From Candidatus Gottesmanbacteria bacterium RIFCSPLOWO2_01_FULL_43_11b (GTDB lineage: Bacteria > Patescibacteriota > Microgenomatia > UBA10105 > UBA927), in assembly GCA_001780985.1 (NCBI GenBank), contig MFJV01000001.1, forward strand, positions 364,049 through 428,048: a DNA stretch of 64,000 bases, given 5' to 3'. Position numbers and translations under genes: made by a program. Below the pieces are notes generated by a model, which saw only the letters and a list, made by a program, of their open reading frames with translations, had not been told where the DNA came from and did not search any database. This document shows, one piece after another, positions 27,487 to 31,935 of this stretch. Each line of letters starts with the position of its first letter. Positions within the stretch are counted from its first letter, which is position 1.

Positions 27487-27842
27487 AAATAAAATAGTAA
27501 ACGAGTAGTTGTGCACAAGGGAGAATCCAATAGAAATCCTTTTTCTGACTCTTTGTTCTCCGCAACTTTGACCGATTAGTACGAGTAAGCTAAATACCTT
27601 ACGGTACGTACACTCCTCGCCTATCAAACCAGTAATCTACTGGTGGTCTAAAAGATTCCTCATCTTGGGGTGGGCTTGGCGCTTGAGATGCTTTCAGCGC
27701 TTATCCCGACCGGATATAGCTACCCTGCGATGCTAGCCCAAGGGCTAACAACAGGCACACCAGGGATCCGTCCCTCCTGGTCCTCTCGTACTGAGGAGAG
27801 CTCCCCTCAAGAATCAAAACGCTCGCACTGGATAGAGACCGA

Positions 27843-28151
27843 CAATTTGTTACAAAGTTCTTGCTGGCTCCAATTCTTATTGGAACAGCTTAGAAATTTG
27901 GATACCCTTTATGGGTATAGTCTGCATGTCGCCATGCAGTTCGGACTATATCTTCCCCCTCTTTTTCCGTAAAAAGAGCGGGGTCTGACATATAGTCTCT
28001 GAGGGTTTCCGTCATTTGACGGATCTTCCCTGCTGATTATCTGCACCTAAAGATTATTACTTAAAAAGTACTTTAGGATACTCAGAGTTTCCAGCATATA
28101 GTCAGATTTATAGACAGCTCTTTATATAGTAATGTCAACTACTATAGGTCT
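27843..28151 (-). mobile_element. Group I intron in 23S domain V, inserted between GAGACAGU and UCGGUC (classic homing-site region around E. coli 2585-2593)
   Basis: Exon sequence resumes exactly across the insertion. The intron contains an S element (GAAGAUAUAGUCCGAAC) and an R element (CCUCAGAGACUAUA) able to form P7. Confidence 0.7.
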
Positions 28152-28251
28152 ACTGTCTTACGACGTTCTGAACCCAGCTCGCGTACCCTTTTAACCGGCG
28201 AACAGCCGGACCCTTGGGACCTTCTCCAGCCCCAGGATAGGATGAGCCGAC

Positions 28252-28502
28252 CATGTTTACCCACTGTTACCAGTGGCATAGACTATACCATCACCCCGAT
28301 TAAATCGGGGGCTCAGCAATATGATATCAATTGATATCTCATCCGTCAGATGACGGAATCAGTCGTTACGGGGTCACGAAGACTTCCCTCGGTATTGCCC
28401 TTTGACCGGGTTCAATGGTCAAGTCGGGTTTCACCGATATGAGCTGAATTATTCAATAAGAGATTACTCTCTTAGGCGACATTCCCGGTAAATACCGGGA
28501 TT
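28252..28502 (-). mobile_element. Group I intron in 23S peptidyl-transferase region, inserted between CUCGAU and GUCGGCUC (about E. coli U2504/G2505)
   Basis: Exon continuity GGCACCUCGAU | GUCGGCUCAUCC; intron carries GGUAUAGUC and ACGACUGA variants of the S/R elements. Confidence 0.65.
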
Positions 28503-29049
28503 ATCGAGGTGCCAAACCGCCTCGTCGATATGGACTCTCGGAAGCGATCAGCCTGTTATCCCCGGGGTAGCTTTTATCCGTTAAGCCCGGTCCCTCCCAT
28601 GAGGGATCCGAGGATCACTAACACCCACTTTCGTGTCTGTTCGACTTGTAAGTCTCACAGTCAAGCTGGCTTATCGCGTTTGCACGACACGCCTCGATTT
28701 CCATCCGAGGTTAGCCAACCTTTGTACGCCTCCGTTACATTTTTGGAGGCAACCTCCCCAGTTAAACTGCCCACCAGACAGTGTTCTCCTCCGATATTTT
28801 TATGTCGGAGTAAGTAAGATTTCCCCATTTCGAAGAGTGGTATTCCATGTTTCGTCCGAAGACTCCCACCTATGCTCGACAGTCAAAATAAGGTCCTCAG
28901 TGCCAAGTTACAGTAAAGCTCCACGGGGTCTTTTTGTCCAAGTGTGAGTAGGCCGCATCTTCACAGCCATTTCAATTTCGCCGGGTAGCAGTTCAAGACA
29001 GTCACTAAGTCATTCTACCTTTCGTGCGGGTCGGAACTTGCCCGACACA

Positions 29050-29314
29050 ATGTGTTACCCCTGATTGTGATCAGAGTGCCTTTCTAGTTCCAGTCAAGGC
29101 TCTCCGTATCGCTACGGAGTTCAGACTATATCATCATCCCAATACTATTGGGAGTTTGGCGTCTAGTCGTTGAGGGGTCCGTCAGCCGACGGACTTCCCT
29201 GCTGATTGACTCCACCGAACAGATTATTACGTTATCGTACTGTCGGATACTTAAGTTATTCCAGCATATAGCCAAATATTCAATCCACTTTACAGTGGAA
29301 GGTCCCCTGTCGCG
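29050..29314 (-). mobile_element. Group I intron in 23S domain IV, inserted between AAAUUCCU and UGUCGGG (about E. coli 1943/1944)
   Basis: Exon continuity GGUAGCGAAAUUCCU | UGUCGGGCAAGUUCCGACC; shares R/S elements and the motif AAUAUUUGGCUAUAUGCUGGAA with the neighbouring intron. Confidence 0.65.
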
Positions 29315-29340
29315 AGGAATTTCGCTACCATAGAACAGTT

Positions 29341-29768
29341 CACTTTGTTATACACCGATTGGTTACGGCTCTCATGGTCGCCCATGAGGTCGGACTATAT
29401 CATTCCGCCGGTTGGCGGATTTGGCGTATAGTCTCTGAGGATAAAACTATGAATTTATGTTAAATCTACTTGAGGCTCCGCTTCTACTTTTTCTTCAATT
29501 GGAGTTTCCCATGTTTTTTTAGGAAATAAACGTTGTTTTATTGCGTTTACAACATCTTTAAATCCAAATTGGCTTTTCGGCCATGAATCCGGATCTCCTA
29601 AATTTAATGGTTCGTCCTCAAGTCTAATGTTCATAGTAGTCTTTCCTGCTGATTTTCCGCAGTTGGCGCATTTTTACCACTTTTTGAGTGGTAGCGCAAC
29701 ATTCTATCCTTTTTCAGGACGGATCTTCCAGCATATAGCCAAATTTTACAACTACAAAACTGTATTTT
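29341..29768 (-). mobile_element. Group I intron in the 23S helix 69 loop (L1917-type site: GUAACUAU | AACUGUUC)
   Basis: Exon continuity across the H69 loop; S/R P7 elements present (GAUAUAGUCCGACC / CCUCAGAGACUAUACG); contains a 59-aa ORF. Confidence 0.7.
29455..29634 (-). CDS. Small intron-encoded ORF (59 aa, MNIRLEDEPLNLGDPDSWPKSQFGFKDVVNAIKQRLFPKK...), possibly a remnant homing-endonuclease/maturase gene
   Basis: Wholly inside the L1917 intron. Its ATG overlaps (ATGA) the stop of the track ORF 29631..29834, which runs into exon sequence. No known nuclease motif recognised. Confidence 0.25.
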   Translation of the reverse strand: MNIRLEDEPLNLGDPDSWPKSQFGFKDVVNAIKQRLFPKKTWETPIEEKVEAEPQVDLT

Positions 29769-31935
29769 ATAGTTACTGCTGCCGTTCACCGGAGCTTGCG
29801 TAGTTAGCTTTCTCATCTTTCGAAGAGTGACCAACCACGATTAACTTACCGGCACTGGGCAGGTGTCAGCCCCTATACGTTGCGTTTCCGCTTCGCAGAG
29901 ACCTGTGTTTTAGTTAAACAGTTGCTTAGTGTCGTTTACTGTGACCCCGCCAAAGGCGGGGTAGGGCATCTCCCAAAGGTTACGCCCAGTTTATGTTGCC
30001 GAGTTCCTTGAACTACTGTCGCCCGCTTGCCTTGGTATACTCTACCAGCGCACCTGTGTCGGTTTGCGGTACGGACATAAATGTATTCCTCAACGAGATT
30101 TTTCCTGAAAGCAGAACTATCTGTATTGCCCGCATCTTGCGACTTGGACTCTCATTCGCTTTTTAGTTAAACGTAATAACGGATTTACCAGTTATCACTA
30201 CGTCAAAGCTTAGAGGCCTCACGACCCACAGACACATCCTCCCCTGTCATCCCTTTGAGTCTTAATCAATACACTTACGGTAACGGAATATAAACCGTTT
30301 ATACATCGGGGTATAGCATACGCGTCCCCCTTAGATCCGACTTACCCGAAGTCGACGAACGTTGCTTCGGAAACCTTGCGCATTCGGCATGAAGGATTCT
30401 CACCTTCAAACGCTACTCATACCGGCATTCTCACTTCATATCGCTCCAGTTAGCCTTACGGCCTGACCTTCACCGCAATATGAACGCTCCCCTACCACGT
30501 GCCTTACGGCACATCTCTACCTTCGGCCCTCTGCTTGAGCCTCGATCATTTTCGGCGCCACGGCTTTCATCCAGTGAGCTGTTACGCTTTCTTTAAAAGA
30601 TGGCTGCTTCTAAGCCAACTTCCTGGGTGTCTAAAAACCATGACTTCCTTAACCACTGAGCAGAGAGTTAGAGGCCTTAGATAAGAGTCAGGACTGTTTT
30701 CCTTTCGACACACGAGCTTAGCCCCGCATGTCTGACTGCCCGAGTATGTTCATCTGTATTCGGAGTTTGATTGTGACATCTCGCTTACGCTTGATGCCGC
30801 ATTCAGTGCTCTACCACAGTAAACAATTTAACGGGCGCTATACCTAAATATATTTCGGGGAGAACCAGCTATCTCCAGGTTCGATAGGCATATTACCCCT
30901 ACCCACAAGTCATCTCACAGATTTGTAACTCTGACGAGTTCGGGCCTCCTCCCGATCTTCATCGGGGTTCACCCTGCTCATGGGTAGCTCACCTGGTTTC
31001 GGGTCTGTCCGAACGTACTAATCGCTTCTATAAAAGCTCGCTTTCACTACGCCTGCTCCGTTAGCTAACGGATTAAGCTTGCACGTCCGGGCAACTCACC
31101 GGTTCATTCTTCAATAGGCACGCGATTATGACAAAAATCTTACGATTTTCACCACTCTCGCTGTTTGTTAGCCGACAATTTCAGGTACTTTTCATTCCCC
31201 TTCCGGGGTGCTTTTCACCTTTCCCTCACGGTACTAGTTCACTATCGGTGCATTCGTGTATTTAGCCTTGGAGGATGGTTCCCCCAGATTCCCACAGGAC
31301 CTTGATGTCCCATGGTACTTAGGTATCCCGCAGAGGGGACTTGAATTTCGAATACGAGGCTTTCACTCTCTTTGGCTACCTATTCCAAGGTATTCTTCTA
31401 TTCTCATCCCATCCCTTATGCGGGACCCTACAACACCCTTGCGGGTTTAGGCTGCTCCGCTTTCGCTCGCCGCTACTGACGGAATCTCAATTGTATTTTT
31501 TTTCCTCACCCTACTGAGATGTTTCAGTTCAGGTGGTGCCCAGTAATATTGCTATTTCAACCTTGCGGCTGACTTTACAACATACTTTCCCTTGCGGGAT
31601 GGATTGCTCCATTCGGAAACCGTCGGATCGCGGGATTATGGCTCCTCCCCGACGACTATCGTGGTCATATACGTCCTTCCTCGGCACGAACGCCCAAGGC
31701 ATTCATTATCGGCTTTATAGCGTTGCGAGGAACAAAGAGTTCCCCAGCTATTTAATATAAATATTATTAAATATAAAAATATTAAGCTGCAAAAAGGATC
31801 CACATATGGATTCCCCCTTGCGGCACAACTACTCTATGTACAGTATTTTGGAATTTCACCTCACCTGTACAGTCGTTAACTTGTTAAAGTGCTAGCCTGC
31901 CCGCTAGCGCCTGAGCGCAAGCGATGGCCGGCGGG

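Follow-up and report, generated by a model that had tools for sequence, protein, structure and literature searches.

The 23S rRNA gene considered here lies on the minus strand of a stretch of 64,000 nt (hereafter the window) from Candidatus Gottesmanbacteria bacterium RIFCSPLOWO2_01_FULL_43_11b, a member of the candidate phyla radiation (CPR; Microgenomates group), namely positions 364,049 to 428,048 of contig MFJV01000001.1. It is interrupted by four insertions with the sequence and structure signatures of group I introns, designated I1 to I4 from the 5' end of the gene. The Rfam model LSU_rRNA_bacteria (RF02541) matches it from 27557 to 31729 on the minus strand with 2062.5 bits and over the full length of the model (positions 1-2925). 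A preliminary description of this DNA had given a span of 27557-31745, strand unstated; the start is the same, the end lies 16 nt too far. The four insertions total 1255 nt, the subtraction of which leaves a mature 23S rRNA of 2918 nt. The features of the gene are as follows:

27557..31729, minus strand: 23S rRNA gene, 4173 nt including the introns (Rfam RF02541)
29768..29341, minus strand: intron I1, 428 nt, after U1917 in the loop of helix 69 (H69); family 1
29315..29340, minus strand: micro-exon between I1 and I2, 26 nt, E. coli positions 1918-1943, AACUGUUCUAUGGUAGCGAAAUUCCU
29314..29048, minus strand: intron I2, 267 nt, after U1943; family 1, no open reading frame (ORF)
28502..28252, minus strand: intron I3, 251 nt, after U2504 in the peptidyl-transferase region; family 2, no ORF
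28151..27843, minus strand: intron I4, 309 nt, after U2604 next to A2602; family 1, no ORF

Positions are numbered after rrlB of E. coli K-12, with the landmarks U1939, G2445-U2460 and the 2580-2612 stretch used for verification; the 23S copy of E. coli strain M2, which is 3-4 nt out of register with the standard numbering, was discarded as a reference. Mapped against this aligned 23S, the insertions fall after U1917, U1943, U2504 and U2604 (sites L1917, L1943, L2504 and L2604), and the four exon-junction strings proposed in the preliminary description all proved right. A purpose-written spliced aligner, using match/mismatch scoring and an intron penalty independent of length, independently finds the identical four sites, its calls outside E. 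coli 1850-2700 being end artefacts that were disregarded. Site mapping from BLAST high-scoring segment pairs was dropped, as it fused neighbouring introns across micro-exons and overlooked I1 and I2. With a slash marking each splice site, the junctions read agcagtaactat/AAAATACAG...AACAAAGTG/aactgttc for I1, gcgaaattcct/CGCGACAGGGG...ACACATTG/tgtcggg for I2, ggcacctcgat/AATCCCGG...AAACATG/gtcggctc for I3 and cgtaagacagt/AGACCTATAG...ACAAATTG/tcggtctc for I4. The ligated junctions are predicted to be ...GUAACUAU/AACUGUUC... (I1), ...AAAUUCCU/UGUCGGG... (I2), ...CCUCGAU/GUCGGCUC... (I3) and ...GACAGU/UCGGUCUC... (I4), and the appropriate annotation of the gene is a 23S rRNA of 2918 nt joined from five exons, one of them of 26 nt.

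Regarding the nature of the insertions, the Rfam covariance model Intron_gpI (RF00028) matches all four end to end, two of them, I2 (72.2 bits, E 1.5e-17) and I4 (68.8 bits, E 1.6e-16), above the gathering score of 50 and the other two below it. Each intron is preceded by an exon U and terminated by a G, and a P1 helix with U·G at the splice site can be read directly from the sequence in all four. P1 comprises 6 bp in I1 (exon AACUAU/intron GUAGUU), 5 bp in I2 (exon UUCCU/intron GGGGA) and 6 bp in I4 (exon GACAGU/intron GCUGUC), along with a P10 in I1 (exon AACUGU/intron ACAGUU) and I2 (exon UGUCG/intron CGACA) and a possible one in I4 (GGUCU/AGACC). The 3' strand of P7, GRTATAGTCY, has five matches in the window for 0.18 expected, that is one per intron on the minus strand and a fifth on the plus strand within the tail of I4; beyond P9, this intron continues for about 78 nt as a 3' extension. 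Three copies of the block TGRCTATATGCTGGAA are present in the window (0 expected), one in each of I1, I2 and I4. The placement of group I introns in H69 (L1917), at L1943 and in the peptidyl-transferase region of domain V (L2504 and L2604), as put forward in the preliminary description, is hence supported, as is its remark that three of the introns share long sequence blocks. In a multiple alignment, I1, I2 and I4 have in common a P3/P4 block, UUGGCUAUAUGCUGGAA, and a P4'/P6 block, AAUCAGCAGGRAAG, from which I3 differs.

To place these three introns, hereafter family 1, GTDB species representatives were scanned with the 16-mer TGRCTATATGCTGGAA, which gave at least 120 loci; true intron similarity was present in 51 of the 120 loci listed, more than half of them being chance matches. 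The 51 loci belong to CPR genomes and to metagenome-assembled genomes (MAGs) labelled Gammaproteobacteria, Actinomycetota, Planctomycetota, Nitrospira, Acidobacteria and others. A profile hidden Markov model (HMM) was built from I1 (its P6 insert removed), I2, I4 and the L1917 intron of locus L065, an ORF-less intron from a Levyibacteriota MAG. This family-1 HMM detects introns at L1917, L1923, L1931, L1943, L2262 and L2604, plus one at L2500, and misses I3 together with most introns at L1951, L2449, L2500, L2504, L2511, L2584, L2593 and L2656.

Covariation in family 1 was assessed with RNAalifold on 61 members from the fetched loci over 164 well-occupied columns, P7 being counted by hand because this helix crosses P3 as a pseudoknot and is thereby beyond the folding program. 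RNAalifold recovers P3, P4, a P5 extension, P6 and P9. In P3, P5 and P9, standard pairing amounts to 92-100% and compensatory pair types are numerous; P4 shows essentially no variation, and in P6 two pairs are invariant and one covaries (AU/GC). The conserved core UGGCUAUAUGCUGGAA / AAUCAGCAGGRAAG corresponds to P3 and P4-P6. P7 is conserved and has two covarying pairs (UA/CG and AU/GC); one of its seven pairs is broken in I2. The pairs of P3, P4, P5, P6 and P9 are retained in I1, I2 and I4, save one gapped column in I4, and I1 retains all family pairs in P3, P4, P5, P6, P7 and P9. P8, the length of which varies, falls out of register when aligned by columns, yet forms an obvious hairpin in each intron of the window.

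I3 belongs to a second structural family. By BLAST it is similar to another set of introns, located at L1951, L2449, L2500, L2511, L2584 and L2593 among the sampled loci, and it aligns with ORF-less introns at L2504 (locus L119), L2511, L2584, L2449, L1951, L2593 and L2500. The family-2 alignment, of 11 ORF-less members, has a shared core made up of YCGGCUCAUAWCGGUGA, CAAUACCGWGGGAAG, CCCCGUAACGACUG and GAUGGUAUAGUC; across these members, two variable hairpins, P7.1 and P7.2, stand between the 5' strand of P7 and the 3' strand of P3, and clear compensatory changes are visible in P3 and P9, as judged by eye and uncounted. A conserved P3-P9 core including the P3/P7 pseudoknot, with covariation, is hence present in both families, as counted in family 1 and assessed by eye in family 2. 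From the presence of P7.1 and P7.2, which is the sole basis for this assignment in place of a formal subgroup classification, I3 would be IA-like. As it is unmatched by the family-1 HMM, the earlier reading of the introns as four homologous copies is unsupported; the alignment that had been suggested as a check on common ancestry unites I1, I2 and I4 in one sequence family and leaves I3 apart.

The preliminary description further suggested that one intron family had spread to several sites of this gene. A recent multiplication of one intron within this 23S gene, whether through reverse splicing or through ectopic homing, would agree with the long blocks that I1, I2 and I4 have in common and with the single HMM that matches all three, but it is very improbable given how distant these introns are from one another. 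Over 160 columns, the identity of the cores is 64% between I1 and I2, 66% between I1 and I4 and 72% between I2 and I4, at or below the family background, in which the mean identity is 73% for introns of the same genome at different sites, 73% for introns at the same site in different genomes and 71% when both genome and site differ. When 60 family members are ranked by identity to I1, I2 or I4, the other two introns of the window come 12th to 58th, with introns from other phyla ahead of them. The closest relatives of I1 in the sample are the L1917 introns of Solirubrobacterales MAGs and an L1931 intron from a Gammaproteobacteria MAG, and the closest relative of I2 is the L1917 intron of L065 (81%), its nearest neighbour in 382 of 500 column resamplings. 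Since identity is at background level and closer introns are found in other phyla, recent spread within the gene is unsupported. Besides, I3 is of another family, and family-1 introns occupy L1917, L1923, L1931, L1943, L2262 and L2604 across many phyla, so that diversification among these sites is old. A neighbour-joining tree of 61 cores, computed with no bootstrap, is star-like, does not separate site lineages and does not group I1, I2 and I4; the reasoning draws on the pairwise ranks and the nearest-neighbour resampling rather than on this tree. From these comparisons of the cores, I1, I2 and I4 appear as old, independent members of a widespread family and not as recent copies of one another.

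One observation hints at some movement between sites. The I2 core is nearer to the L1917 intron of L065 (81%) than to other L1943 introns (66-71%), so that a site switch somewhere in the history of the Microgenomates is possible. Those other L1943 introns are longer. In a Patescibacteria MAG (L048), the L1943 intron has 1098 nt and a LAGLIDADG_1 ORF, and a junction-specific scan of metagenome contigs yielded L1943 introns of 1073-1100 nt at loci L129, L130, L132 and L134. All five begin with CG....AGGGG, as does I2; the introns of L130 and L048 are identical in the aligned core. Compared with the five endonuclease-bearing L1943 introns, the core of I2 reaches the above 66-71%, those five being 73-94% identical to one another where distinct, and its P1-P2 region resembles theirs. 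It is conceivable, although unlikely, that I2 is a hybrid in which P1-P2 and splice-site recognition are of L1943 type and the P3-P9 core is of L1917 type, the Levyibacteriota of L065 being a related Microgenomates phylum; if true, I2 would exemplify core exchange or site switching in nature, between neighbouring rRNA introns 26 nt apart. Closer spacing occurs elsewhere: loci L048 (at about 1980-4030) and L130 carry L1917, L1931 and L1943 introns in a row, with intervening exons of 14 and 12 nt, shorter than the 26-nt exon of the window.

At L2504, a 307-nt intron occurs in a Brennerbacteria MAG (L119). The sites of I2 and I3 thus recur in other public CPR sequences (L048, L129, L130, L132 and L134 for L1943; L119 for L2504), and from the sequence comparisons I2 and I3 are considered ORF-less members at real but uncommon homing sites. 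A full-text literature search on the site names L1943, L2504 and L2604 returned no intron paper.

A side observation concerns L065 itself. On the reverse complement of this locus, at about 355-1018, an endonuclease-bearing intron adjoins L1917 (cggta/GGAATT...TCTAAG/cgaag), for which no placement gives a preceding exon U together with a terminal G; this intron may have a non-canonical splice site. A non-canonical splice site has reportedly been observed in one Coxiella intron.

I1 differs from the three other introns by a 174-nt insert in its P6 loop, as located by the Rfam alignment. This loop is filled by the following reading frame:

29455..29634, minus strand: 59-aa orphan ORF (MNIRLEDEPLNLGDPDSW...), from the ORF list, filling the P6 loop of I1

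The AUG lies within the 5' strand of P6 and the stop just ahead of its 3' strand, and the ORF is preceded by the conserved AGGAAAG of the ribozyme core, a sequence similar to a ribosome-binding site. It has no Pfam match at E up to 10, its sole match in 5.8 billion proteins is itself (hypothetical protein A3A79_02130 of Candidatus Gottesmanbacteria RIFCSPLOWO2_01_FULL_43...), and neither blastp nor tblastx reveals similarity to the endonuclease ORFs of related introns. In L1917 introns, the LAGLIDADG ORF begins in P6 (Haugen et al., PMC1995217), and the position of the 59-aa ORF therefore matches that of an endonuclease gene. This ORF could be a remnant, decayed or replaced, or else a small ORF specific to the lineage; that it encodes a new intron-borne protein is a possibility too, a lesser one than the hybrid origin of I2. 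The remaining ORFs of at least 40 aa overlapping the introns are short mechanical frames of 41-100 aa, the Pfam scan having covered the 59-aa ORF only. No intron-encoded endonuclease ORF, be it LAGLIDADG or GIY-YIG, was found in any of the four introns.

Taken together, the four insertions are, with good confidence, self-splicing group I introns of two families devoid of endonuclease genes, probably immobile relics that have been inherited vertically. In such introns, P1 would arise by pairing of the internal guide sequence with the last nucleotides of the exon, the 5' splice site being marked by a U·G wobble. This site would be attacked by an exogenous guanosine bound in P7, after which the terminal G of the intron would take the same pocket and the freed 3'-OH of the exon would join the exons. 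Splicing at all four sites would be needed to obtain the 2918-nt 23S rRNA with intact H69 and peptidyl-transferase centre. The four introns would be what is left of endonuclease-driven invasions and, lacking homing endonuclease genes, they are taken as probably immobile. In other genomes, LAGLIDADG genes persist in related introns that occupy the same sites.

Several points weigh against this interpretation. In the Intron_gpI search, I3 (33.5 bits, E 5.8e-6) and I1 (32.5 bits, E 1.2e-5) score below the gathering score of 50; for I1 this is attributed to the 174-nt insert in P6, and I3 has the P7.1/P7.2 inserts. The P1 of I3 has just 4 bp (CGAU/GUCG), and reading the sequence for a P10 in this intron did not find one; of the four, I3 would be the likeliest to depend on a protein cofactor. 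We infer splicing at the four sites because the cores are intact and because of what has been published on CPR transcripts (see below), and the lack of a recognisable endonuclease is the only ground for regarding the introns as immobile, next to an uncharacterised orphan ORF in I1. Besides, the family sample is biased and incomplete, drawn as it was with the family-1 16-mer TGRCTATATGCTGGAA from 8-kb stretches.

Rather than being spliced, the insertions could be intervening sequences (IVSs) cut out with no ligation, in the manner of RNase III and leading to a fragmented 23S rRNA, or expansion segments retained in the mature molecule. In bacterial 23S rRNA, IVSs sit at helix tips, in helices 9, 25 and 45. 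According to a CPR survey, fragmenting IVSs exist in bacterial 23S rRNA, probably in CPR too, and the title of one of its references reports an unspliced group I intron in the chlamydial Simkania (PMC11270868). Here, all four insertions have a complete group I core and splice-site signatures, and none is a helix-tip stem-loop lacking a ribozyme core. The strands that they break, in H69 and in the peptidyl-transferase region, are universally conserved; the sites are the H69 loop, the 1939-1945 strand and the strands at 2504 and 2604, where retention would disrupt the tRNA-binding core. Excision with no ligation, or retention, is hence very unlikely, and self-splicing remains the preferred interpretation.

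The possibility that this rRNA gene is decaying or chimeric, i.e. a pseudogene or a mis-assembly, as could be feared from a metagenome-assembled genome and from a public contig (L123) that begins inside the 23S gene, can practically be dismissed in view of the full-length LSU match given by the exons (2062 bits), the intact ribozyme pairings, the agreement of six contigs from separate assemblies (99.1-100%) and the flanking 5S and tRNA-Ala genes in normal order. The six contigs (L123-L128), each from a separate ENA assembly, match the window at 99.1-100% identity; I1 is covered by all six and the entire I2 by all except L124, and L123, the longest, spans all four introns. As the same arrangement is found in separately assembled contigs, it is no assembly artefact. 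The sample names of these contigs include ANAN16, which presumably designates the Rifle aquifer dataset (Anantharaman et al., 2016). The flanking genes are:

27362..27478, minus strand: 5S rRNA gene, directly downstream of the 23S gene (Rfam RF00001, 76.3 bits)
31934..32008, minus strand: tRNA-Ala(UGC) gene, upstream of the 23S gene (ARAGORN and Rfam)

The rRNA unit is thus ordered tRNA-Ala(UGC), 23S, 5S (27362-32008, minus strand). The Rfam scan found no 16S rRNA gene in the 64-kb window, so the 16S gene is unlinked from the 23S-5S pair.

With respect to known systems, the locus is an unexceptional example of a trait documented in CPR. In their survey of CPR 23S genes, Tsurumaki et al. (2024, J Bacteriol; PMC11270868) count 968 insertions, each of 100 bp or more, in 284 genes that bear insertions, i.e. 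about 3.4 per gene with a maximum of 16, and 433 group I introns, of which 222 are ORF-less. The preliminary description rightly presented intron-rich rRNA genes as a known CPR trait, but four introns in one 23S gene, which it considered notable, are close to that average, and sampled genes reach five or six. Between E. coli positions 1850 and 2700, the following numbers were found:

L031 (CAYJVP010000027.1), Gammaproteobacteria MAG: 6 introns
L134, metagenome contig: 6 introns
L048, Patescibacteria: 5 introns
L119, Brennerbacteria: 5 introns
L085, Acidimicrobiales: 4 introns

As a side observation, family-1 introns are frequent in MAGs not labelled as CPR (L031, L085, L021, L035, L036, L100, L117 and others), with labels such as Gammaproteobacteria, Acidimicrobiales, Solirubrobacterales, Planctomycetota and Nitrospira. 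Unless some of these contigs are mis-binned, the literature may overstate the extent to which intron-rich bacterial 23S genes are confined to CPR.

Like the window, CPR 23S genes of the survey, which are from the same clade, have several group I introns clustered in domains IV and V. The recurrent positions named there are 1917, 1931, 1952, 2593, 2604 and 2657, so that I1 (1917) and I4 (2604) are at named hot spots, whereas 1943 and 2504 are not named in the available text (PMC11270868). According to the same text, which cites Brown et al. (2015, Nature 523:208), the insertions of CPR rRNA genes are removed from the transcripts.

Outside CPR, several introns in one bacterial 23S gene were first described in Synechococcus (PMC1995217), strain Synechococcus sp. 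C9 having introns at L1917, L1931 and L2593 (Haugen et al., 2007; PMC1995217), and Thermotoga has introns at L1917 and L1931 (Table 1 of PMC1995217). These genes resemble that of the window by their several group I introns and by the start of the L1917 ORF in P6, as in I1; they differ in that each of their introns carries a full LAGLIDADG gene, whereas the introns of the window have none and the ORF of I1 is a 59-aa orphan. Another case is that of Coxiella burnetii, the 23S gene of which reportedly has two introns, Cbu.L1917 and Cbu.L1951, flanking a 34-bp exon (Raghavan et al., 2007; reference 29 of PMC11270868). The L1917 site is common to this pair and the window, but in the window the second intron is at L1943, the intervening exon is of 26 nt, two further introns are in domain V and all four introns end in the canonical G.

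Beyond correct annotation, the locus is of little significance and leaves the knowledge of CPR rRNA introns unchanged. Regarding annotation, a 59-aa 'hypothetical protein' of GenBank falls inside an intron. The locus nonetheless provides a clean and compact example of ORF-less rRNA introns from two families in CPR, adds ORF-less instances at the seldom-mentioned sites L1943 and L2504 and, with introns of 251-309 nt apart from I1, could offer a small substrate for splicing in vitro.

Elsewhere in the window, ARAGORN predicts tandem tRNA-Ala genes with the anticodons CGC and GGC at 12944-13093 on the plus strand, 4 nt apart, which brings to three (CGC, GGC and UGC, the last upstream of the 23S gene) the different tRNA-Ala anticodons present. 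Besides, a stop-free frame of at least 4198 aa at 2-12595 on the minus strand, which runs off the start of the window and matches no Pfam family at E<=0.001, is probably a giant CPR protein of unknown function.

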